A stretch of 53,936 nt of DNA from a virus. A model generated the notes under the pieces. It was given only the letters and a program-made list of their open reading frames with translations. It did no database searches and was not told the origin of the DNA. The position numbers were made by a program, and so were the translations under genes. Below, in pieces: positions 32,870-53,936 of this stretch (position 1 is its first letter; each line of letters begins with the position of its first letter). The stretch is taken from IMG/VR virus record IMGVR_UViG_3300020123_000246. One strand, given 5' to 3'.

Positions 32870-35800
32870 GTGCCAGTTGACTTCCTAGAGGCCCCGCTTC
32901 CGGAAACGGCGCCAGAGACGCCGGCTGCTACTCCTCCAATCCAGTTCCAGCCAGGCGGAATCGATTTTCTGCCCGCCGAGGAGATCGCAAAAAGTGCCGT
33001 CAATATCGGTGTTGGGCTCCCTCAGGCCGTTAATCGGCTCCTCACAAATCCGGCTGTAGCAGCATCCTCCGAAATGGGCCGAGCGGCTGCCCAACAGGAA
33101 AGGGCAGATCAGGAACGAATGCAGCAAGCCCGATACATTGCTGGCGCGGGCCCATCGGCCGGTTTGGCGTTGATACCCCCTGAGGCCACAAAACAGGCTT
33201 TGGCTTACGCGCCGACCATTCCCGGCCGGATGCTCAATGCTTTCATGCGGCAGGCGGCCATGGACCCGGGCACAGGCGTTCACCCGCCGACGCCGCAAGC
33301 CTTTGGTGAAACCGAGGCTGAGTATGAGCAGCGGAAGCAGTACCCAATGGGAGCTCCCGGCGAACCGCTCTACATACCGCAAACGGACAATCCAAGCGAC
33401 TTTCAGAAATTGGCGATGCAGGCCTCCACCATCAATGACCTGCTTGCCATTCCTATCGGGGTGACTCGCACCGGCGGCAAAGTGCTACTGGCCAGCATGG
33501 TCCCCGGGATTATTGGCCAGGTGAACGAGATTGCCACTGGCCCGGGTGATGCCAGGGATAAGCTCGAAAAGGCAAAGGCTTTGATTATCCCTGCAGCTAT
33601 CGGGGTTTTTGCTTCCCGACCTCGAGGCGCTCGCCTATTCCCTGAGCGGCTTGGTCCGGAGGCTGATATCGGTACCCCGGTTTATCCGCCCATGGAATTC
33701 AGTGGCGCCGCGCTCCCCGGCAGGCCTGCAGGAGCAATCCCTCGAGGCGGCCCGGCGGGTGTTGGCCCGGGCTACCCGATTGTCCCGCGTGCGGCCGAAC
33801 CGGTTGGCCCGCAATTCCCACGCCGCGGCGCGCCGATTGAGGTACCGGGAACGGCCGCCGGACCCGCACAAACTGTTCTCGAGGAGATCCGTGCCAATGA
33901 TGCGCGCACTATTCCACAAATTCAGGAGCTCTTTCCGCAACTCACTCGAGAGCAAGCTCGAGTCTATCGCAACCAAGTTTGGGGCGCCGCGGTTAGCGAT
34001 GTGGGTGTCCGAGTTTCGCCGGCCGTGCCGAGGCCTTCTCCGATGGGTCCTCCCACTCCGAGAGCCGAGGCGCCGCCGGAGGCTCCCAGGACCCCTACTA
34101 CTGAGGAGCAAATCGCTGCCCGAGAAGCTCCTGAGGTTGCAGCTCGCCGCTCAGCTCTCGAGCAGCAGATTATCACCTGGGAGCGAGAGCTCGAATTTGC
34201 TCAAAAGCGCGGAGATGCTCGAGCGCAGCAGGCGGCGGTCGATAAACTCCTCGAGCTCAGACGTCAATATGAGGGTCCTCAACCACCCGCCAAGCAACCC
34301 ATCACGCCTAAACAGCCGGTACCTGGCGTGCCTCGAGGCTCTTTCCCGCCTGAGGTACCAGCAACGGCCGCCCAACCGCGGGAAACTGTCCTCGCAGAAA
34401 TTCGACGGGCTAACGCTCGAACGCGCGCCGAAATCCAAAAGCTTTTTCCAGCTCGTAACCTCACGCGGGAAGAAGCTGCAGCACTGAGGGATCAGGCCTG
34501 GGGCAAACAACCGCCGGAAGAGCCACCCGCGGCACCGCCGGCAGCGCCAGCACCCAAAGAGCCTACCCCTCCCGCTCCTGCAGCGCCGTCAGCCGCAAAG
34601 CCGGAAATTGCAACGCGCTCAACCAGCCCGAACAATAACCCATTGGGCGATCCGATGGGGACTACCTATCACGCTACGCCTGAGGATTGGGCCCAATGGC
34701 AGAAGCTGATGGAGCAGCGCAAGGCGCTCAACTCAGACCCGAACAAGACTGTTCAACAGAAATTCCAGCAGGGCGCCGAGCTCAGCCAGGCGATCGAGGA
34801 CCTGAAAAACAAATACGGCGGGGCGCCGCCTAAAGAGCCAAAGGTCGGTGCTCCTCCTGTTACCGGTTCACCGGACGATCTTGTTCCTGCTCTCAAGCCA
34901 AAAGAGGGCGAAGTCATTCAGGGCCAAAAGGGCAACGTCCATGATGATATTTACAAAGCTCAGGGCGATATCGAAGGCAAGCTGCTCAGAGTTGGGCAAC
35001 CGGAGCACGGATTCTGGAACTCGAAGCTAAAGAAATTTCAGACGCGCGATGAAGCAGCAGCCTACCTGGGAGAAAAAGATCCGCTCCATTCCGAGCGGCT
35101 TATCGAGCTTCAAAAGAAGGTTGCGCCACCCGAGCCGACTGCAACGCCGGCAGCGGCCGCTCCACCTGCAGAGGCCCCGCCGGCGGCGCCGGAAAAGCCT
35201 AGCACGATCGGGGAAACCCCTCTCGCCGGCAAAACCCTTGGAGAGTGGGAAGCGGTCAAGGATGCCTCGCAACTTCCCCGAGGGGACGCGCGCGCCGAGC
35301 TCGCCAAGTATTTAGCGGTACCCAACCAGCCAAGCCGGATCCTGCAGGCCCTGGCCAACAAAAAGCGCACCCGCGAGATTCACGCGCCTCCGGCCGAGGT
35401 TGCACCGGTTCTATCAGGCGAACTCGCCTTGCGCTTTGGCGATTGGGGTCCTGATGGCAAATTGCATTACAGCAATAAAGTAATAGGGGTACCTTCCTTG
35501 GAAGATGCCGCCCGTAAATGGAATGAGATTCGAGAGAAGTCAGGAGCGGGAGCAAGCGAATCTCCGGTTGTAGTGGTCGTTAATACCAAAACGGGTGAAC
35601 ACGTAGCGAAGGTCAGTTACAACGGCAGATTATGGGACGCGCAAGGCAAAGAAATCCAGCCAGAGCCGAAAACCGCTAAGGCCGAGCCTACCGCACCCGC
35701 CGAAGCTCTCCCGCCAACATTGGCCAGTCTTTGGACTGAGTATGACGAAGGCGGGAAGATGACTGAGCGCGATCTCTTGCAACACGTTCTGAACATGGAG

Positions 35801-38800
35801 CCGGAAAATCTTCCACCGGCACTTGCAAGAGCAGCGGCCAAGTACCGAGATGCGGTTGAGGAAGATTTCAGCATGGCGGGCCGTGGTGATGTTGAGCCTG
35901 CTCAAGACCGGTTCATGGCCGAATTTGAGAAAGCGGCTGGAAAGGAAAAGCCGAAAACTGAAACGAAACCCGCCGAACCTGCAACACCTACTCCTGTTTC
36001 TGAAACGAAACCGCCTGTTAGTGCAACACCGGCGGCAGGGGCAGCCAAAGCGCAAGCCGAGGTCAGCAAAGTTGCGGCGACCGAAGGCCAGCGACCGGCG
36101 AAGGATGTTAAGCAGGATTTGATTGATGGGCTACAACAGGCGCTTATGAAAGCGCCGTCGAAAGAGGAAATTGACGCGGTTCAAAAGCCGGGCACGAAAA
36201 CCTTTGATGCCGATAAATGGCCAGAGGACAAACCGAAAACCGTAACGATTGACATTCCCGGCGATGGTGTTTTCACGGTTCCTAACACGATTGAGGCACT
36301 TTCCGAGGTACTGGATCGTGCTCGGAAATTAAAGACAGATGCAGGCAAACCTGAGAAGGTTTCGAAAAAAGCTATCAAGGCCAGTGAGGGAGCGATTCGA
36401 AAGACCGCTGGCACTACGCCTACCCCGGAACAGCCACCCTCTGACCTCGGCCCCACTGGCGGCACTGGCCCCGGCACTCCATCAGCAGAACAGGGCCCCG
36501 ATCCGGTTGTGCTCGACCTCAGGACCGGCAATCCGCTCTTCAATTCCCTACAGCGGAAGTACCAGAACTTTTTCACCGGGCTCAAGCAGCTCTGGACGCG
36601 CCATCCCGCCAAGCTCGATATCATGGGCTTGTCCAACGCGGCGAATAACCTTCCGCGGATTTACGGGCAGCAGGCCGGAAACTCCCTCAGGCTCGGCGCT
36701 ACCGAGGCCGATTTGAAAGCGGCGACCATGCTCATGCAGTCGCTCAAGATGAGTGGCGACGGCCTTTCGGTCGAGGATGCTGAGCGCCTCGGGAAGCTCG
36801 AGTTTGCTGACGACCCGCAAGGCTACCTCAGGGATAAAGAGAGCCAAATGTTCACCACGGCCCAACGCTTCCTCCACCAAGGCAAGAAGCTCGAGGCCGC
36901 GGCTGCTCTCGACGCACACCGGGCTTACAAGGATGCCGCGGACAATTTCAATCGCTTGCGTCCCCTGGCTGAGAGGGCCCGCCAGAAATTCGATCGCCAG
37001 TTTGGGCGGGAGCAAGCCTCAGGCCTGGATACCGCTTACGAGAATTGGTACGTGCCTCAACGTCACGATCTCGATCTCTTTGTCAGTCCCAATCGGCCGA
37101 TCGTGCTCGGCGATTCCAAAGGCGGCGGCGGCGCCCAATTCCGCAAAGCCAAGTTTTACGAGGACTATGCCAGCGCCATCGAGGCCGGCTGGATCCCTCG
37201 CTCTCTCAACATTGCTGACCTGCTCGAGCACCGGGTAGCTTCCGGCGAGCGCATGATTTTCAACAAGGGCTTCTTTGATCAGATGCGCAGTATCACTGAC
37301 CCGGTCGATCAACGGCCGGTTGTCATCGATATTCCCCGGCGCACCATTCAAATGCCGGATGGCACCACGCGCAGCCAAGAGTCAATCCCGCACGGTTATA
37401 CCAAGATGGAGGTCAGCCCAGGCGTAAACGTCGCAGTCCATGAGGGCTACTCCAGGCTGGTTAATGCGCTCACTGCCAGAAGTCAGCTCGCAGAGTCGGC
37501 GGTCGTGGGCACGCTGCAGGACATTGCCGCCGTCGAAAAGCATCTGATGCTGGCTCTGGATACGTTCCACCTGTCGCGCGTGCTCCAGGCCGAATTCTTC
37601 CTCACCGGCAAAGTCAGCCTCGGCCAGCGCCAGCGCATCGGCCGCGCTTTGGTCGAATACAGCGCCGAGGATTTCGACCGGGCAGTCAAGGCCGGCGAAC
37701 TCACTCAGGAGATGGTTGACTACATGCGCAAGCCGCAGCCCATGGAGGTTCACGGTAAGACGGTTAATGTGAGTCCCAAAAACCTCGTCATGTTCGGCGC
37801 CAGGCAGGGGCTCAATATCGGCCGCATCGGCGACGCTCTTTACCGCGATTGGCTGCGCAACATGCCGATCACCGGCGAGATAAACAAATTCGTTTTCGAC
37901 AAGGTTTCCCGCAGTGCAATCGCAAATGGCTTTCTCGCCGAATTTGAGCGCGTTGCCAAAGCGAACCCTGATCTCACCGGCGCCCAAGTGGCAAAGCAGG
38001 TCGCGCGCGATATCAACGTCCTCTTTGGCAATCTCCAAAAAGAGAGCATCTTCCGCAATCCTTCCCTGCGCTCGCTGACCCAAGTGCTTTTCCTGGCGCC
38101 GCAGTGGGTTGAATCTCTGGCCAGGCGTGAGACTCGAGGTGTCCTCCAGTTTGGCCAGGCTGCGGCCGATATCCCCAAAGCCATTTCCGAGGGCCGTCTG
38201 CCGCGTTTGGGCACCGTGGGTAAAGGTGTCGGTACCGCCCTGGCCGGCTACTTCGCCGGCACTCAGATCCTGAATCTGATAACCCGCGGCAAATTCACCT
38301 TCCAGAACCCGGAGGCGGGCCACAAGCTGGACGCCTGGATCCCCGGCGGGCAAAATGGCTTCTTCATTTCCCCGCTCTCGGTCTTTGGCGAGATCACCCA
38401 TGACATTCTGCGCTACGCCGAGACCAAACCCGACTTCGCTACTGCCGTCCAGCAAATCGGGATGAACAAGTTAGGGCCGCTCGGTCGGTTCCTCTACGTG
38501 CTCGCCAGCGGCCGGGACCCGATGACGGCTGAGAAGCTTGTCGGCACTGGCCGGCGGGCTACCCGCGCCGCCATGACTGCGGTACCGGTACCGATCACCC
38601 TTTCGCAGCCTTTGCGCCTGGCGGGCTCAAAGCTGGCCCCGGGAGTGATATCCCCGCCTGCCCCCGGCGCCGTCGAGCGACAGGGCCTGGCCTCCATCGG
38701 CTTTAAGACTGAGCCGGTCGGCACGGCCCAAAGCCAGATTTATCACTTGGCCGAGAAGTGGAAGAGCCAGTCAGGCAACGCCAAGTACGAGGCTGAGGTC

Positions 38801-39106
38801 GAGCGCCGGCTGAAAGAGGACTTTGGCCCAAGTGATTACCGGGATCTGCGCTCTGCTCTTACCCGGGACGATCCAAAAGCGGCGCGCGCGGCGTATCAGG
38901 AGCTGCGCAGTGAGGGAAAAACTCCCAAGACCATCCGGCAAACCTTTCAGCATCCCCATCCTTTCACCGGGAGCGGCCAGGCCGAGTCCGCTTTCAAGCG
39001 CACGCTCAGCGATGAGGACCGGGACCTTTACGATCGGGCCCTCGAGGAGCGCCGGGACCTCTACCGCAAGCTGCAGGAAATGTTACAATCAACTGAACCA
39101 GAATAA
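32870..39106 (+). CDS. Giant virion-associated protein (2078 aa), positional analogue of podovirus internal core/ejection proteins
   Basis: Single uninterrupted 6.2-kb ORF (GTG start); ~1100-aa P/A/E/K-rich N-terminal half with an internal duplication; more globular C-terminal half; no catalytic motif recognised. Confidence 0.6.
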   Translation: MPVDFLEAPLPETAPETPAATPPIQFQPGGIDFLPAEEIAKSAVNIGVGLPQAVNRLLTNPAVAASSEMGRAAAQQERADQERMQQARYIAGAGPSAGLALIPPEATKQALAYAPTIPGRMLNAFMRQAAMDPGTGVHPPTPQAFGETEAEYEQRKQYPMGAPGEPLYIPQTDNPSDFQKLAMQASTINDLLAIPIGVTRTGGKVLLASMVPGIIGQVNEIATGPGDARDKLEKAKALIIPAAIGVFASRPRGARLFPERLGPEADIGTPVYPPMEFSGAALPGRPAGAIPRGGPAGVGPGYPIVPRAAEPVGPQFPRRGAPIEVPGTAAGPAQTVLEEIRANDARTIPQIQELFPQLTREQARVYRNQVWGAAVSDVGVRVSPAVPRPSPMGPPTPRAEAPPEAPRTPTTEEQIAAREAPEVAARRSALEQQIITWERELEFAQKRGDARAQQAAVDKLLELRRQYEGPQPPAKQPITPKQPVPGVPRGSFPPEVPATAAQPRETVLAEIRRANARTRAEIQKLFPARNLTREEAAALRDQAWGKQPPEEPPAAPPAAPAPKEPTPPAPAAPSAAKPEIATRSTSPNNNPLGDPMGTTYHATPEDWAQWQKLMEQRKALNSDPNKTVQQKFQQGAELSQAIEDLKNKYGGAPPKEPKVGAPPVTGSPDDLVPALKPKEGEVIQGQKGNVHDDIYKAQGDIEGKLLRVGQPEHGFWNSKLKKFQTRDEAAAYLGEKDPLHSERLIELQKKVAPPEPTATPAAAAPPAEAPPAAPEKPSTIGETPLAGKTLGEWEAVKDASQLPRGDARAELAKYLAVPNQPSRILQALANKKRTREIHAPPAEVAPVLSGELALRFGDWGPDGKLHYSNKVIGVPSLEDAARKWNEIREKSGAGASESPVVVVVNTKTGEHVAKVSYNGRLWDAQGKEIQPEPKTAKAEPTAPAEALPPTLASLWTEYDEGGKMTERDLLQHVLNMEPENLPPALARAAAKYRDAVEEDFSMAGRGDVEPAQDRFMAEFEKAAGKEKPKTETKPAEPATPTPVSETKPPVSATPAAGAAKAQAEVSKVAATEGQRPAKDVKQDLIDGLQQALMKAPSKEEIDAVQKPGTKTFDADKWPEDKPKTVTIDIPGDGVFTVPNTIEALSEVLDRARKLKTDAGKPEKVSKKAIKASEGAIRKTAGTTPTPEQPPSDLGPTGGTGPGTPSAEQGPDPVVLDLRTGNPLFNSLQRKYQNFFTGLKQLWTRHPAKLDIMGLSNAANNLPRIYGQQAGNSLRLGATEADLKAATMLMQSLKMSGDGLSVEDAERLGKLEFADDPQGYLRDKESQMFTTAQRFLHQGKKLEAAAALDAHRAYKDAADNFNRLRPLAERARQKFDRQFGREQASGLDTAYENWYVPQRHDLDLFVSPNRPIVLGDSKGGGGAQFRKAKFYEDYASAIEAGWIPRSLNIADLLEHRVASGERMIFNKGFFDQMRSITDPVDQRPVVIDIPRRTIQMPDGTTRSQESIPHGYTKMEVSPGVNVAVHEGYSRLVNALTARSQLAESAVVGTLQDIAAVEKHLMLALDTFHLSRVLQAEFFLTGKVSLGQRQRIGRALVEYSAEDFDRAVKAGELTQEMVDYMRKPQPMEVHGKTVNVSPKNLVMFGARQGLNIGRIGDALYRDWLRNMPITGEINKFVFDKVSRSAIANGFLAEFERVAKANPDLTGAQVAKQVARDINVLFGNLQKESIFRNPSLRSLTQVLFLAPQWVESLARRETRGVLQFGQAAADIPKAISEGRLPRLGTVGKGVGTALAGYFAGTQILNLITRGKFTFQNPEAGHKLDAWIPGGQNGFFISPLSVFGEITHDILRYAETKPDFATAVQQIGMNKLGPLGRFLYVLASGRDPMTAEKLVGTGRRATRAAMTAVPVPITLSQPLRLAGSKLAPGVISPPAPGAVERQGLASIGFKTEPVGTAQSQIYHLAEKWKSQSGNAKYEAEVERRLKEDFGPSDYRDLRSALTRDDPKAARAAYQELRSEGKTPKTIRQTFQHPHPFTGSGQAESAFKRTLSDEDRDLYDRALEERRDLYRKLQEMLQSTEPE
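33818..33985 (+). repeat. Internal duplicated module copy 1 inside the giant gene
   Basis: PRRGAPIEVPGTAAGPAQTVLEEIRANDARTIPQIQELFPQLTREQARVYRNQVWG. Confidence 0.6.
34331..34504 (+). repeat. Internal duplicated module copy 2 inside the giant gene
   Basis: PRGSFPPEVPATAAQPRETVLAEIRRANARTRAEIQKLFPARNLTREEAAALRDQAWG. Confidence 0.6.
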
Positions 39107-43069: not shown

Positions 43070-43237
43070 TTATTCGAAGTCCCCGGGGTGCTCTTCTCTG
43101 TAGCAGTCGATGTAGGAGTCAATTCTGCCAGCGAGCTCCTCGAGGTACTCGAAATAATCGGTTCCTCTTAGAGGTTTCGCGTTTACGTCGATTGCTCTCA
43201 TCGCGTCCCTAACGGCTTTTTCAGTGGCTGGTGTCAT
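43070..43237 (-). CDS. Hypothetical protein (55 aa)
   Basis: Hand translation MTPATEKAVRDAMRAIDVNAKPLRGTDYFEYLEELAGRIDSYIDCYREEHPGDFE; ATGA overlap upstream. Confidence 0.4.
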   Translation of the reverse strand: MTPATEKAVRDAMRAIDVNAKPLRGTDYFEYLEELAGRIDSYIDCYREEHPGDFE

Positions 43238-44460
43238 AATCCGAGAGCTGCTCTTTCTTCCGGGGTGAGTTTGGCAAGCGCGGCTGCTCGAGGATCCTTC
43301 TCGAGGCCGAGGGCCTGGCGCTCTTCTGGCGTGAGCTTATCGAGCGCTGCCTCAGCCACTGTCTTTGCTGTCGTCTGTATCACCCCTTGCGGCGCTACGG
43401 CCGCCGGCGTCACATGCGCTTGGCGAACCGGCGTAATAAAGAACGGTTGGCCTTGTGCTGGTGGGCCCGCGGCGGGCTGGTTAGGTCCGCGCACCAAAGT
43501 TGGAATGCCCTCGGTAACCACTGTCTTACGAGTGCGCTGAGGCCCGTTGGTTGGCGCCGGCAAGAGTGGTGCCGCGGCGGGGACTGGCTGCGCTGCAGAT
43601 TGCGTGCTCGCATGATTGACGAATGCTTCAATCTCGATCTGTTGAGCCGGCTTATAACCATTGACCCATTGCCAGTGCTTTACCAGCGGAGCAAAGCCTC
43701 CGAAGTAGATCTCATCGAGATCCTCCTCATGCTCGCAGATGACAAACTGGCCTTGGTTGACGGTCGAGATATAGACGTTGCGCCGGATGATCGGCTTCTC
43801 TGGCTGGCCGGCCGCGCGCCGCATGAGCTGCCAGGCCTTGGCGTACGCGGCGAGCTGCAGCCGGTGTTCAGACCAGGCGCCGCCTTTGAGCGGATCCGGA
43901 AGGGTCTTGCTCCCTTTGTAATCGGTAATGCTCAAATGCGTTTCGAACTCTTGCATAAGATCGCATCGGCCGGCATACCCGTCGCCAACCAGGCCGGTTT
44001 CAGTGCTGATGACCTCGCCAAAAGCCATGATGGCCTCGAGGGCATCTTTCACCCAGGGGAAGATCTCCGCATCGATTTCCAAGCCTACTACGCCAGCCTC
44101 GATCGCGTCGTGAATTTGGTTGCCCTTGTCCCGGGCGATATCGCGCTCCTGATGCTGCTGTTGCTCGACCTGCAGGACGCGAGTAATAAAGACGTCATCG
44201 GCCTCGCCTGGCTGGCGCGGCGCCGTCACGACTGCCAGAACAGCTTGCTCAATCATCCAGTTTACCAGGGCCTCTTTGTGCAGAAGTTTTAGGATCCCGG
44301 TGACTGAGGGAAGGAGATTAAGCTTGCGCGCGTCTTTGAGGTTGGTAGATCGCTGCCCTTTCTTATCGGCACGGTCGACAACGTGACAGGCTTTGCCGTC
44401 CGTAAAATACCAGTGCGCTTCGTCTGAACTCTTAACTCTTGCGGCTGTAGGATTGCTCAT
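43234..44460 (-). CDS. PD-(D/E)XK (RecB/Cas4-like) exonuclease with Pro/Ala-rich repeat-bearing C-terminal tail
   Basis: GNQIHDAIEAG; GRCDLMQ...SITDYKGSK; HRLQLAAYAKAW. Confidence 0.7.
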   Translation of the reverse strand: MSNPTAARVKSSDEAHWYFTDGKACHVVDRADKKGQRSTNLKDARKLNLLPSVTGILKLLHKEALVNWMIEQAVLAVVTAPRQPGEADDVFITRVLQVEQQQHQERDIARDKGNQIHDAIEAGVVGLEIDAEIFPWVKDALEAIMAFGEVISTETGLVGDGYAGRCDLMQEFETHLSITDYKGSKTLPDPLKGGAWSEHRLQLAAYAKAWQLMRRAAGQPEKPIIRRNVYISTVNQGQFVICEHEEDLDEIYFGGFAPLVKHWQWVNGYKPAQQIEIEAFVNHASTQSAAQPVPAAAPLLPAPTNGPQRTRKTVVTEGIPTLVRGPNQPAAGPPAQGQPFFITPVRQAHVTPAAVAPQGVIQTTAKTVAEAALDKLTPEERQALGLEKDPRAAALAKLTPEERAALGL

Positions 44461-44892: not shown

Positions 44893-46365
44893 TTACATTG
44901 GAATATCATCGTCCTGACCGGCCGGGAGCTCTGGTTGAGCCTCAGCTTGGGTGTCCTGGCCGTGCTTTTCCTCCCACTCGAGGAACGCATCGAGGGCTTC
45001 GCGGAAAGTGAAATCCGACTGGGTTGGTTGGTAGGTGGTACCGTTATGCTCTCGAGGAGCTGGCGCCCAGTTCCTGGCCATTCCCCAAAGCCGCTTTTGG
45101 CAGGCCTCATCGCCTTCCTTCATGCCCTTGTAAAGGCTACCGATGGTATCGGGGTTTTGCTGGTACTCGGCGCGCTTCATCCCAGCCCGCGGGATAGGGC
45201 AGATGATATCAAAGAACCACTCCGGATCGCGAGACTTGGCGGCCTCGGCCCCCGGCGCCTTGGAGGTGGTTGCTGGCTTAGATTTGGGGGGGTCTTTCAG
45301 GTCGTGAGGCTTGAAAGCGTGCTCGGCTTTGCCCGTTTGGGTGAAAAGCTGGATTTTCTCCTCGAGGAGCTTCAATTCATCCCGACTCAAAGGGCAAAAC
45401 TCGAGCCCTAAGGCCTCTATCGGGTCCGTAGGCAGGAGAGCCGCCGGATTTACCAGGGCCCGATAATACGCAACCGCATGATTTAGAATCGGTTTGAGCT
45501 GTACAATGAGCCAGTTAAGCGTTGCTTGGCTGGCAAACTTGGGTTTCTGCTCGACCTTTGCGCCAGGCGTGACGCCAGTGCTCGCCGCTTGCACGCCCTG
45601 AGGCGTTTGGCTTGCCGCCGGTGTGGTTACACCCCCTGCGGCGGCCTGGGCGGTCCTAGAGCTCTTCTCCCTGAGCTTCCGCCGGGCCCACCAACCATTG
45701 CACCAGTCCTTTTTCCATGCCTGCAGGCCAACTCCGAGCTCTTTACAGCACCGGCGCAAGGCGGCCGTTTTGGCGCCCTCGACGGCATCGCCGTAGTTCT
45801 GACTGTTGTTGGAGGGGTAGTACTCCATTTCCCCTACCGCCTCGCCAACAAAGCAGCCCCTGATTACCAGCATTGCCTCGACGTAAACCCGGCTACCGCT
45901 CACGGCCGGCTTGCGCTCCCTGGCTGGAAGGGTGAAGGGCTCAGCCCATCGATTGCGCGGGACAATCGCCCATTTGCCCATACCGAAAACACTGGTGAGA
46001 CGTTCCCTGAGTGCAGCGTGCTCGATATAAATGAGATTCTCTTTGCCGGCGGCGCCAGGCTGGAAAGCCTCATCAGGGAAATCGGCTTTGAGCTTATCCT
46101 CCTCCTCGGGGGTGAGCTCGAGCTCTGAGGCGCGCTCATAGGCTCGCATGGTCAAAGCAGCGACGGCCTCAACTTTGGCTTGCGCCGCGGTTATCTGTGG
46201 CTTGGCTGGTTCAGCCTGGGGCCGGCGCTGCTCAAGGGCCATTTGGCGCGGCGGCGGCGCCTCCTCGGTTGTGGGTGGGTCCTGATCGATTGTCTCGGCT
46301 TCAATGGGCTCGTTTGTCATAGGAGGTAACGGGTGTTCGTAACAATATCTTGATAAATCAAACAT
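44893..46365 (-). CDS. Rad52/MGM101-like single-strand annealing protein with long C-terminal extension ending DDDIPM
   Basis: IYIEHAALRERLTSVFGMGKWAIVP and GEAVGEM...NYGDAVEGAKTAALRRCCKELGVGLQAW match the Rad52-family core; start ATG 46365 (alternative 46320). Confidence 0.7.
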   Translation of the reverse strand: MFDLSRYCYEHPLPPMTNEPIEAETIDQDPPTTEEAPPPRQMALEQRRPQAEPAKPQITAAQAKVEAVAALTMRAYERASELELTPEEEDKLKADFPDEAFQPGAAGKENLIYIEHAALRERLTSVFGMGKWAIVPRNRWAEPFTLPARERKPAVSGSRVYVEAMLVIRGCFVGEAVGEMEYYPSNNSQNYGDAVEGAKTAALRRCCKELGVGLQAWKKDWCNGWWARRKLREKSSRTAQAAAGGVTTPAASQTPQGVQAASTGVTPGAKVEQKPKFASQATLNWLIVQLKPILNHAVAYYRALVNPAALLPTDPIEALGLEFCPLSRDELKLLEEKIQLFTQTGKAEHAFKPHDLKDPPKSKPATTSKAPGAEAAKSRDPEWFFDIICPIPRAGMKRAEYQQNPDTIGSLYKGMKEGDEACQKRLWGMARNWAPAPREHNGTTYQPTQSDFTFREALDAFLEWEEKHGQDTQAEAQPELPAGQDDDIPM

Positions 46366-46633
46366 TTGGCAGCAAGGGCAGGACTGCGGCGTAGAGCTCG
46401 GCGGCGCTCCGCTCCTCGGCCTCCTGCCTTTCGTAGTCGCGCATGATTTCCTCGAGGACCTCGAGGGCTCGGCCTGGGGCTCCCATGCGGAGGAGCTCGG
46501 CCGCCTGGCCGGTAAGGCGCCGGCGCCGCTGTTCAGGTTGCTCAAAGCCGAACACTTCGCGGGCCTCAGCCAGGCGCGCGCCGATGTTGGCTTTCATCTG
46601 ATCTCTGATCAATCCCTGCGCTACGGTTGTCAT
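46358..46633 (-). CDS. Hypothetical helical protein (91 aa)
   Basis: ORF track. Confidence 0.5.
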   Translation of the reverse strand: MTTVAQGLIRDQMKANIGARLAEAREVFGFEQPEQRRRRLTGQAAELLRMGAPGRALEVLEEIMRDYERQEAEERSAAELYAAVLPLLPNV

Positions 46634-51241: not shown

Positions 51242-51451
51242 TCAGGCGGCTTTGTGGGGTTCGCGGCGACTTGCGAGGACCCCTTTGACGTAGTCATCGG
51301 CGGCCCGGCGCGCGGCGGCTTGCGCCTTTAACTCACAGATAGCGAGCTCACCATCGGTTAGGTCTTTAGATTTAACCATAACATCGACAACAAGATCCAG
51401 TTGCTCACGTGGAACTTTATGGCGATAACTGCTTCGAACTAACTGGTTCAT
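51242..51451 (-). CDS. Hypothetical protein (69 aa)
   Basis: ORF track. Confidence 0.45.
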   Translation of the reverse strand: MNQLVRSSYRHKVPREQLDLVVDVMVKSKDLTDGELAICELKAQAAARRAADDYVKGVLASRREPHKAA

Positions 51452-51810
51452 GTGCTGGACTCCTGGGACTCAGGCACGTACTTCTCCTGTGGAACCATGT
51501 CGCTTTTTGCCGCGTCATTTGAGGGGGAAGGAATGGACACGCCTGGCCAAATCGCTCGAGCGTGAGCGCGCAGAAATATGCCCGGGCCCTTGACGTCAAC
51601 ATCCTTGAGCGCTTCATCAACCAGGCCGGCCGCATGCTGGAAGGCGTCAGCCTGCACCTGCAGGAAGAAATTGTGCAGGTAGATTCTTTGCTGATCACTG
51701 AGCTCAATCGAGGTTTCGGACTGAGCTTTGGCTACCCAATCGGCGGCATCCTTCATGGGATTAGGGATTCTTCGTGGACAGTAAGAATGCAGGTTGTGAG
51801 TGAGAGACAC
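51448..51810 (-). CDS. Hypothetical protein (120 aa)
   Basis: ORF track. Confidence 0.45.
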   Translation of the reverse strand: MSLTHNLHSYCPRRIPNPMKDAADWVAKAQSETSIELSDQQRIYLHNFFLQVQADAFQHAAGLVDEALKDVDVKGPGIFLRAHARAIWPGVSIPSPSNDAAKSDMVPQEKYVPESQESST

Positions 51811-52258
51811 GGTCCTGTCGCTCGCCTGGGGTTACCCCTTTGGCCAACCTGCAAAAGGAATTGCCGCGTACCCGCATCGCGCAAACTCTGCCGGGGCGGA
51901 CAATCCCCGGCGTCGGATGTTGGATCTTCAAAGGAGGGCACACGGCAAAAAGCTGGTCGAGGTGATTCATGCGCAAAGAAAACTGAGCGTGCCGGGATTT
52001 GCCCGGACAACACACCCTCGACCAAAAGAGCAGCGCCAGAGCTAAAATCCCGTAGGACGGGTGCACCGAGTTGCCACAGGTGCCATCTGGCGCGACTGCC
52101 TGTTTGCAGGTTGCTCGGCAAAACCAGTGGTAGAGCCGCCCTTGCTTGAGGCCCACAGCGGGCCGAAAATCCCCTCGATCCGCTTCGTCCGCTTCGGCGC
52201 CTACCCTAACGGAAGGATATTTTAAGGCGATCCATGTGACACACGGATGAGGGAAAAT

Positions 52259-52389
52259 TGGCGAACACGGCCGGAATCGAACCGGCTTTCCCTGGTTACC
52301 CGGGTTATGAGCCCGAGGCGGGCGCACAGCTACACACTTACCTAGGCGGTGCGTAGTCTCACGAGAGCTGTCCATCTCTTGTCGTGCTC
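52259..52389 (-). ncRNA. tRNA-like element (initiator tRNA-Met-like anticodon arm, canonical T arm, encoded CCA, G3:U70), 131 nt with non-canonical insertions
   Basis: The minus strand reads GAGCACG-ACA-AGAG-AUGGACAG-CUCU-C, a 46-nt insert, then CUCGGG-CUCAUAA-CCCGGG-UAACCAGGGAAA-GCCGG-UUCGAUU-CCGGC-CGUGUUC-G-CCA. The 7-bp acceptor pairs GAGCACG with CGUGUUC. Confidence 0.5.
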
Positions 52390-52391
52390 GG

Positions 52392-52424
52392 AAAAAAAGT
52401 CCCCCGCTGTTAGCGCAACGGGGG
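52392..52424 (-). terminator. Rho-independent terminator immediately 5' of the tRNA-like element
   Basis: Minus strand CCCCCGTTG-CGCTAA-CAGCGGGGG then ACTTTTTTT. Confidence 0.75.
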
Positions 52425-52608
52425 GTTTGCCGGCAGAGTGCGACTCGACCGGCGGTTGTATTCGGCGAGGGAGGCCGAAATCCTTGACGGCTTACCCTCG
52501 CCAGCTCGCTAAAGCTGCAATTCATGATCGCTATTCCAAACCCAAATCAGGCGACCTGTGAAGCTTTATTTTTTTGAGTGCGCTTAACTCGCTGAGGTAC
52601 AGCGAGAT

Positions 52609-52628
52609 ATTTTTCCAGATTTTTCCAG
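52609..52628. repeat. Tandem 10-nt direct repeat (atttttccag x2)
   Basis: Read directly at 52609-52618 and 52619-52628. Confidence 0.9.
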
Positions 52629-52911
52629 AGCGGCACCCAAGCTCCGGATGCCGTTCTTGCCTTTTTGGCGTCGGGCAAAGGAATCGACCGCACCTCCAGC
52701 ATCGCCCTATGTCCTTAACATTCAAGCAGTCCAGAGGATTTCTATTTTGAATAAGAGGAGCATCAGACGGCAGCTATAGAGCCACCTGGCCGATGGCTTA
52801 TAACTGACTCGCCCTCCGGCAATGCCGATCACGGCGCAGATTTCGCGGTTTCGCCAGAGAAGCCAAGAAAAATGGAAGGCGTGAAATCTCATAAAATGTC
52901 CCTGATTTCCA

Positions 52912-53250
52912 TTACTTTTCGTGCCAGAAATAGATCCGGGTAACCCTGGTTTCCGGCGTGCAGTGGTTTAGTTTGCAAAACATCGCCACAAATTCAGGCG
53001 GGGTCATCTCGGGGAAACCCTCCATTTTGACCTCTTCATGGTTGATCCGCTTGAGCGGCTCTTGGGTGACGTTGATAACCGTAATCGCGTGCAACTTAAC
53101 GACTTTCTCACCCTTCTTGAGTCCGCGGACCTTGCGCACTCCCATCAGCTTCTCGCCGATTTTGAGGTACCGCCAGCCAAGCCGCCTCGTCACGGTCTTT
53201 GTCCTGGCTTGGAACTGGCTCTCCGTCGCATTGAAGCTTATCAGTCTCAT
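52912..53250 (-). CDS. ASCH domain protein
   Basis: MRLISFNATESQFQARTKTVTRRLGW ... small beta-barrel-sized ORF typical of ASCH/PUA-like proteins. Confidence 0.65.
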   Translation of the reverse strand: MRLISFNATESQFQARTKTVTRRLGWRYLKIGEKLMGVRKVRGLKKGEKVVKLHAITVINVTQEPLKRINHEEVKMEGFPEMTPPEFVAMFCKLNHCTPETRVTRIYFWHEK

Positions 53251-53467
53251 AAATCATTGGGTGTTGGTGTCCGATAATGGTTGCTGCTCGAGCGGCGTGC
53301 AGGAGGTCAGCGTATTTGGGAAACCTGCCAGACTCGAGGCGGCCGAATTCCCTAAGCCACTCCGAAAAATGGTACCAGGCAGTGGCCGCCTGATTGGGTG
53401 TGAGACTCCAGGCGCGGTTACCGACAAAGAAACACTGATCCTTGCGGTTGAATTTGCGTAGGTTCAT
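53108..53467 (-). CDS. Hypothetical protein (119 aa); 3' part overlaps the ASCH gene
   Basis: ORF track; 143-nt overlap makes the C-terminal part doubtful. Confidence 0.4.
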   Translation of the reverse strand: MNLRKFNRKDQCFFVGNRAWSLTPNQAATAWYHFSEWLREFGRLESGRFPKYADLLHAARAATIIGHQHPMIYETDKLQCDGEPVPSQDKDRDEAAWLAVPQNRREADGSAQGPRTQEG

Positions 53468-53809: not shown

Positions 53810-53936
53810 AGTCTTGGTGTTGGGCGGCGGCAAGCGATGGTCCAAACCACTCAGGGATTTTGCTAAGCATAGAAGAAAAAGGCCCGGCCTCCTACCGGGC
53901 CCGAGAATCTGTTGGCTGGTCGAACTTAGTATGGCG
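53810..53936. repeat. Terminal direct repeat copy 2 (identical to 1..127)
   Basis: Read directly. Confidence 0.95.

Follow-up and report, generated by a model that had tools for sequence, protein, structure and literature searches.

Structured RNA and terminator modules between phage genes are of a known kind, and the large GOLLD and ROOL RNAs lie near transfer RNAs (tRNAs) in phages, with one GOLLD located downstream of a Met-tRNA (PMC12286853). The region studied here, positions 51760-52911 of the IMG/VR virus record IMGVR_UViG_3300020123_000246 (the window is this whole stretch of DNA, 53,936 nucleotides, nt, in length), had been taken in an earlier sequence-only reading for a structured RNA locus with the general look of these large RNAs. 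A single large ornate phage RNA of the GOLLD or ROOL kind is not supported, since the region has no Rfam match, a terminator stands in its middle and relatives carry different subsets of it. Instead, the region is a mosaic of short modules that are independently present or absent, and not one RNA gene; its structured RNA and terminator modules belong to no Rfam family.

We consider it probable that two early transcription units meet in this region and that it forms a mosaic spacer, non-coding for the most part, in which a structured terminator module is combined with the relic of a tRNA and a structured leader. The spacer would lie between two gene modules of a leftward (minus-strand) early operon in an uncultivated soil phage, and its minus-strand order would be a lineage-specific spacer, a split small gene, a terminator RNA, a tRNA-Met(CAU)-like relic and a structured leader of ~400 nt belonging to the next gene. 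The features, with lengths in nt, base pairs (bp) or amino acids (aa), are the following.

52726-52911, minus strand: spacer a, between the stop of the open reading frame (ORF) 52912-53250 and the small ORF, from alignment and blastn
52531-52725, minus strand: small ORF in frame A, with a TTG start and 64 aa, its N-terminal ~30 codons (DIGRCWRCGRFLCPTPKRQERHPELGC) conserved
52547-52630, minus strand: C-terminal part of the small protein (LWKNLEKYLAVPQRVK...), read in the ORF 52547-52702 frame, from alignment with contig L022
52588-52628, plus strand: hairpin with T-run and 2x10-nt repeat ATTTTTCCAG, resembling a terminator of the plus (antisense) strand
52392-52517, minus strand: block c, a four-hairpin RNA of ~125 nt with U7, 76% identical to contig L014 2335-2469
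52502-52517, minus strand: hairpin H1 of block c, CAGCT/AGCTG
52464-52502, minus strand: hairpin H2 of block c, with an invariant apical loop
52429-52453, minus strand: hairpin H3 of block c, from RNAalifold
52401-52424, minus strand: hairpin H4 of block c, the terminator stem of 9 bp, then U7 at 52392-52400
52259-52339, minus strand: degenerate tRNA-Met(CAU)-like element with an encoded CCA, in the window only
52023-52167, minus strand: module e, non-coding and multi-hairpin, at 90% identity to L022, with a core of ~75 nt free of differences
51956-52022, minus strand: module f, a hairpin with a 9-bp stem (arms 51954-51962 and 52016-52024, inverted repeat I13), in the window only and deleted in L022
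51860-51955, minus strand: module g, an element of ~86 nt common to L022, L023 and L024
51760-51859, minus strand: module h, the leader directly upstream of the next gene, common to L024 only
51448-51759, minus strand: the next real gene, 103 aa (MKDAADW...), starting at ATG 51759 and not at GTG 51810

The relatives used for comparison are soil metagenome contigs reached via the two flanking proteins, and they were compared by blastn and MAFFT. By this comparison, block c extends over 52394-52525 and is common only to the L014 group (L002-L004 and L012-L019), the upstream gene of which shares 84-85% aa identity with that of the window. Over 135 nt of block c, the window and L014 differ by five 1-nt indels, and block c is therefore non-coding. 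RNAalifold gives four hairpins in both the window and L014, and the stem pairs are kept in L014 in 35 of 35 cases, including six compensatory changes and one change from G-C to G-U, with none broken; slid controls, in which the partners were shifted by 1-3 columns, had no compensatory pairs and 30-55% pairing. From its G-U pairs, the fold belongs to the minus (operon) strand. The folding of the 146-nt block against shuffles reached z=-4.1 in the window and z=-3.2 in L014, and a covariance model (R1) returned no second copy in the window or in 18 other loci.

The H1 loop of block c, UUAGCG, is the exact 6-bp complement of the loop of the terminator hairpin H4, CGCUAA. In L014 the two loops are one base longer and different (UUACGAG/CUCGUAA), and they are again perfectly complementary over 7 bp, the differences between window and L014 amounting to one compensatory substitution and one paired insertion. 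By inspection, the complementarity continues in the stems, where GCU-UUAGCG and CGCUAA-C-AGC can form 9-10 bp around one bulged C, and it would allow either a kissing contact or an alternative helix. This co-varying complementarity, found in two lineages only, is what remains most interesting about the locus. In addition, the H2 apical loop CAAGGAUUU and the H2-H3 linker are invariant, and complements of this loop elsewhere in the genome occur at chance level only. H4 itself has the make-up that defines an intrinsic terminator, with nine pairs (seven G-C), a 6-nt loop and the tail ACUUUUUUUC (minus strand, 52424-52401), and its stem is kept in L014 with one compensatory change.

Most of these hairpins had already been read from the letters. 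The CAGCT/AGCTG hairpin at 52502-52517 and the minus-strand terminator (9-bp stem at 52401-52424, U7 at 52392-52400) were recovered in place, and the remark that the first hairpin's loop recurs in the terminator loop on the other strand corresponds to an exact complement. The proposed 12-bp hairpin exists as well, at 52466-52500 and thus off by one, but it is built of 6-8 bp, an internal loop and 3-4 bp rather than of 12 clean pairs.

Block c may represent the 3' end of the small gene's transcription unit, in which the last hairpin and U7 would serve as the intrinsic terminator. It would terminate or stabilise the upstream transcript, and readthrough or re-initiation would feed the downstream genes. 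The H1 loop is predicted to pair with the terminator loop, in a kissing contact or an alternative 9-10-bp helix, and this pairing might modulate termination or 3'-end stability, while the invariant H2 apical loop is a likely recognition site. Only tentatively do we go further and propose block c as an undescribed cis-acting RNA fold, in which the co-varying pairing of the H1 and terminator loops would make a self-regulating terminator or a closed 3' end and the H2 loop would be bound by a factor from the phage or its host. On this view, modules e and g would likewise count as new phage RNA motifs.

Several points weigh against the spacer and terminator reading. In L014, the U-run after H4 is poor (CCUCUUUCCCC) and no terminator is called there, so that what is conserved in block c may be a function other than termination. 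The comparison comprises two distinct sequences for block c and two to four for modules e, g and h, all of them from related soil assemblies, and covariation statistics are weak at so few sequences (best attainable 15/500 and 4/500 shuffles). A promoter for the downstream genes was not found, and the reading as a whole is drawn from sequence.

The mosaic character of the region is directly visible among the relatives. L014 and L012 share with the window only the N-terminus of the small ORF and block c. L022 has the small ORF and modules e and g, and is without block c, the tRNA-like element and modules f and h, while L024 has modules g and h in common with the window behind a different upstream sequence; these contigs, together with L023 and L025, were reached via the downstream 103-aa protein. 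The L014/L012 lineage has no spacer a, its small ORF overlapping the stop codon of the upstream gene; the first ~55 nt of the spacer are common to contig L020. A conserved large (>500 nt) multi-domain architecture common to the homologues is thus absent, and the pieces c, d, e, f, g and h assort independently in L014/L012, L022, L023 and L024. Among more distant relatives, the IMG/VR relative L001/L006 (55% aa identity) has no gap between the flanking genes and L027 is likewise gapless, whereas L026 has an unrelated 463-nt gap without a tRNA; no tRNA or Rfam match was found at the equivalent place in L026 and L027. Beyond these, blastn in distant mode found no match to 51400-53300 among GenBank phages (n=50,697), exact or gapped DNA patterns of block c, the tRNA-like element and modules e and g were unmatched in IMG/VR, and the flanking 120-aa protein had no relative in IMG/VR.

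Two further observations concern the edges of these modules. Contig L020 tracks the L014 lineage (96.7%) to the end of the upstream gene and then continues with a window-type spacer a (L020 1103-1161), and this switch marks L020 as a recombinant of the L014 and window types, with the junction at the 3' end of the upstream gene. In L014, a 78-aa ORF (2556-2792) lies on a clean indel of ~227 nt relative to L012 and L002, contigs of the same soil study that are otherwise 98-100% identical, and the indel behaves like a small moron-type insertion directly after the block c hairpin.

Downstream of the terminator, modules e-h would form a conserved, structured 5' leader of the next gene, ~400 nt in length; they fit a structured leader or short RNAs, on thin data. 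Module e holds a small hairpin, CCCG-loop-CGGG followed by AUUUU, at 52049-52061. Relative to L022 it has one compensatory change from C-G to U-A in a hairpin and one hairpin in which the stem is kept and the loop replaced, the other differences lying in loops. Module g is closed by a 12-bp helix (UUGCCGUGUG.CCC / GGGUACGCGGCAA) around the hairpin CGGGG-AUUGUCNG-CCCCG, with two compensatory pairs, three one-sided changes and none broken over two effective lineages; the CCGGGG/CCCCGG hairpin of the sequence-only reading is found here, at 51891-51910. In module h, UGCAGGUUG is complementary to CAACCUGCA (51788-51796) and to CAACCUGCAAA in module e (52103-52113). A word of 9-11 nt occurs at three sites (51788-51796, 51845-51855 and 52103-52113), which read on the minus strand as CAACCUGCA(AA) in two cases and as the complement UUUGCAGGUUG in one. 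Pairing of the middle copy with each of the other two is possible, and one of these two is located ~30 nt ahead of the start codon of the next gene; the three copies may constitute a leader switch. The 10-11-nt long-range inverted repeats I2 and I5 were rejected as standalone evidence, their number being about the chance expectation in 1.3 kb.

It could be argued that what follows the terminator is nevertheless a single large structured RNA of ~0.6 kb on the minus strand, starting with or linked to the tRNA-Met-like element just after the terminator and running through modules e-h. The minus strand of 51760-52262 folds better than shuffles (z=-3.55) and better than the plus strand does (z=-1.75), modules e and g show a few compensatory pairs, and the described GOLLD and ROOL RNAs have tRNA neighbours, in one case a Met-tRNA (PMC12286853). 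However, L022 has e and g but neither f nor h nor the tRNA-like element, in L024 g and h follow a different upstream sequence, and L014 and L012 have none of them, while an ornate conserved architecture is not demonstrable from two to four sequences. Rfam gave no match at gathering thresholds over the whole window, and at E<=10 the stretch 51400-53300 gave seven weak matches, none of them to GOLLD or ROOL and only one, to tRNA, notable; in the relatives, GOLLD and ROOL had no Rfam match either. The context is that of a phage, and the sole tRNA neighbour is a sub-threshold tRNA-like element, degenerate and lineage-specific, and not a tRNA island. We regard such a large RNA as unlikely. Of the helix-rich locus first proposed, the minus-strand conserved secondary structure with compensatory changes in block c and two downstream modules stands, and its unity as one RNA is not supported.

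The tRNA-like element is present at 52262-52339 on the minus strand, as had been noticed, but only below threshold: it scores 22.6 bits (E=0.1) with the Rfam tRNA model, for which the gathering score is 29. ARAGORN reported no gene at default settings and a tRNA-Met(CAT) only with relaxed thresholds (-ps). The T arm is perfect, with GGUUCGAUUCC, and the anticodon arm is initiator-like, its loop CUCAUAA sitting on a GGG/CCC stem. Four G-U pairs and a mismatch at 1-72 occur in the acceptor stem, the D stem is mismatched, the D loop has 5 nt (UGCGC) without GG (G18G19), and the variable region comprises 13 unpaired nt. The element occurs in no relative examined. It is probably a decayed, non-functional relic of a tRNA-Met. 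A transfer-messenger RNA (tmRNA) was also considered and rejected, as both ARAGORN at default and Rfam were negative and an implausible permuted call arose only at the 80% threshold.

A functional though unusual phage tRNA, for example an initiator-type tRNA-Met, would account for the four arms, the perfect T arm and the encoded CCA. A GGG/CCC anticodon stem and a 1-72 mismatch are identity features of bacterial initiator tRNAs, and the element has both of them, together with the CUCAUAA loop. However, its score lies under the Rfam gathering threshold, ARAGORN misses it at default, and it is conserved in no relative; the aberrant D arm, variable region and acceptor stem make a working tRNA unlikely, and we give this possibility little weight. 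A looser tRNA pattern matched only an ordinary tRNA-Met in contig L021 (JAQBPK010000036.1, from a metagenome-assembled genome of Vulcanimicrobiota). In this contig of 11 kb, 18 tRNA genes stand within 2 kb (L021 1250-3242), and its tRNA-Met shares anticodon-arm and T-arm sequence with the window element.

Upstream of block c, the small ORF is better described as a gene than as ORF-free sequence. Its N-terminal 22-30 codons are conserved as protein (M-x-x-x-DIGRCWxCxRxxCPTPxR; tblastn E=5e-8), and its substitutions fall at codon position 3 in 7 of 9 cases relative to L022 and in 16 of 25 relative to L014; in the upstream gene, which served as a control, there were 6, 16 and 30 substitutions over codon positions 1-3. 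In L022 there is one continuous ORF (DIGRCWSCGRFPCPTPKRQERHPELGCALWKNLEKYLAEHQRVKARSKKSNCQG with its stop), running on into ...ELGC-ALWKNLEKYLAEHQRVK..., while in the window 1 nt is deleted in comparison with L022 (GGGTGC-CGCTC vs GGCTGCGCGCTC), which puts the C-terminus in another frame, and in L014 the frame changes at yet another point. The small ORF is thus a real gene, encoding a Cys- and Lys-rich protein of ~58 aa and apparently split in this genome by the 1-nt deletion. No Pfam or PHROG family was found for it or for the neighbouring genes, with only a brush with Carla_C4 (E-value 0.04-0.05), and the protein is not hydrophobic.

Two elements that had been read as RNA features fall within the coding C-terminus of this gene. 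The CTCGCTG-aggta-CAGCGAG hairpin is present at 52588-52606, one base from where it had been placed, and the 2x10-nt tandem repeat at 52609-52628; the stretch 52588-52628 encodes K-N-L-E-K-Y-L-A-V-P-Q-R (KNLEKYLAVPQR) on the sense strand. In L022 the stem of the hairpin is kept and its loop altered. These hairpins might be taken for part of a sense/antisense regulatory pair, akin to a type I toxin-antitoxin system or to P1 c4 and P4 CI, in which a plus-strand small RNA would run from block c to the hairpin and T-run inside the small ORF, control that ORF and use its complementary loops in trans. Antisense terminator-like hairpins occur in the 3' half of the small ORF in the window, L022 and L014, and the c4 and CI systems likewise have complementary loop sequences inside one transcript. 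On the other hand, the G-U pairs of the conserved helices favour the sense strand, the antisense T-runs are lysine codons on the sense strand, the non-hydrophobic product does not suit the model, Rfam gave no C4 match, and no promoter-like site was found. Such a pair is quite improbable.

Many temperate phages use tRNA genes for integration and carry a fragment of the tRNA, and this common habit is what speaks for reading the tRNA-like element as a phage attachment site (attP) whose source would be a host tRNA gene, namely its 3' part. However, the element looks like a full-length cloverleaf and not like a 3' fragment, and the 25-nt sequence of its T arm and acceptor had no exact match in 185,579 species genomes (GTDB, one each) and occurred in no IMG/VR contig. 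In the scans of the 70 ORFs, for which all 14 matched Pfam families and 25 of the 34 matched PHROG families were listed, no integrase, recombinase or resolvase appeared among the families listed. An attP is very unlikely because of the missing integrase, and with the host match failing too it was rejected.

The coding status of the region was judged from codon usage, substitutions and homologues. No credible long gene exists in 51760-52911, as had been stated, and no frame of the region has a positive codon-usage score by the genome's own codon usage. The substitution phase is flat in modules e, g and h, while the flanking genes and the small ORF show a clear third-position bias, and three reading frames are open together over the stretch of modules e-h. 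The description of the region as ORF-poor or ORF-free holds in that it is essentially non-coding, and fails in that a short conserved coding ORF runs from 52725 to about 52547; a conserved coding frame was found over these ~180 nt and not in the rest. JGI/IMG calls a 254-aa ORF (51761-52525) and a 56-aa ORF (52722-52892) as genes, both in singleton clusters, and the codon score of the latter is negative. The two are deposited there as predicted proteins P0122 and P0124 over non-coding structured DNA; a look-up by P0122, P0125 or P0129 led to no contig.

That the 254-aa ORF or another long ORF is real is hardly credible: its frame is open in the window, L022 and L024 and gene callers predict it, but its codon score is negative, its substitution phase flat and its conserved part interrupted by single-nucleotide indels, it passes through the terminator and the tRNA-like element, two further frames are open over the same stretch, and among 5.8 billion proteins its only relative is an overlapping, equally spurious ORF of L022, so that it was rejected on codon-position bias, codon usage and homologues alike, in agreement with the doubts of the sequence-only reading.

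The window carries an exact 127-nt direct terminal repeat (1-127 = 53810-53936) and is a complete circular or terminally redundant phage-like genome of ~53.8 kb. The Pfam and PHROG families over its 70 ORFs include DNA methyltransferases, a primase, a DnaC-like loader, a PD-(D/E)XK exonuclease, a Mgm101/Rad52-type annealing protein, GroES and others, and no N-like or Q-like family is among the listed matches. A recombination module pairs the Mgm101/Rad52-type annealing protein (550 aa) with the PD-(D/E)XK nuclease, at 44893-46545 and 43234-44460, both on the minus strand. Most large structural ORFs, including one of 2078 aa (32870-39106), are without a Pfam family, a pointer to a poorly sampled phage lineage. 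True tRNA genes are absent from the 53.9-kb genome by ARAGORN at default and by Rfam at gathering thresholds.

The region 51760-52911 sits within a run of minus-strand genes, and the flanking ORFs 52912-53250 (-) and 51448-51810 (-) and the 254-aa ORF 51761-52525 (-) are all present as listed earlier. The label ASCH given to 52912-53250 could not be verified, with no Pfam match at E<=1 and no PDB sequence match. Its product has 340 homologues at E<=1e-10 and only a weak match to a PHROG of unknown function. A 119-aa ORF (53108-53467, minus strand) overlaps it by 143 nt in a different frame. The 552-nt stretch spanning this overlap is 85% identical to L014, and gene callers disagree between contigs; the overlap may represent an over-extended ORF, an overlapping gene or a frameshift. 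On the other side, the downstream gene most likely starts at ATG 51759 rather than at the GTG 51810 assumed before, as homologues of its 103-aa protein begin with MK and the JGI call has 102 aa. Its substitutions by codon position (10, 15 and 22) show the third-position bias of a coding sequence.

If the contact between the H1 loop and the terminator loop of block c is real, it would offer a phage early operon a compact means of tuning its termination or 3'-end stability, one that is easy to test, and it would add one or more RNA motifs outside Rfam from a poorly known soil phage lineage. The 254-aa and 56-aa database proteins are spurious calls over structured non-coding DNA, and the case shows that phage early-region spacers are rebuilt from short exchangeable modules; it reveals no new giant RNA of the GOLLD/ROOL class.

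Compared with GOLLD (RF01998) and ROOL (RF03087), the locus is alike in being phage-encoded and non-coding, in standing beside a tRNA-like element and in its stable predicted structure. It differs in that no covariance model matches, pieces of 85-150 nt assort independently without a large architecture, and the supposed tRNA is degenerate and solitary. With phage tRNA genes and pseudogenes (RF00005), the tRNA-like element shares the cloverleaf layout, a canonical T arm, the CAU anticodon loop and an encoded CCA, while it departs from them in its sub-threshold score, its aberrant D arm and variable region, its G-U-rich acceptor stem and its lack of conservation in relatives.

Block c has its nearest counterparts elsewhere. 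Phage intrinsic terminators with 3'-UTR (untranslated region) hairpins, such as lambda tL1/tR1 with nut and HK022 put, resemble it in the G+C-rich 9-bp hairpin with U7 in a co-directional early operon. Conserved hairpins precede the terminator here too, and the invariant apical loop of H2 is as expected of a factor-binding site such as boxB, by positional analogy only. It differs from nut and put in having no sequence similarity to them, no recognisable N or Q protein and a degenerate U-run in the sister lineage. To our knowledge, an H1-type loop complementary to the terminator loop is not a feature of nut or put. Relative to the loop-loop regulators P1/P7 c4 RNA, P4 CI RNA and ColE1 RNA I/II, block c is without homology and has both loops in one element of ~125 nt, one of them being the terminator loop, but it is alike in that its hairpin loops of 6-7 nt are perfectly complementary and are kept so by co-variation.

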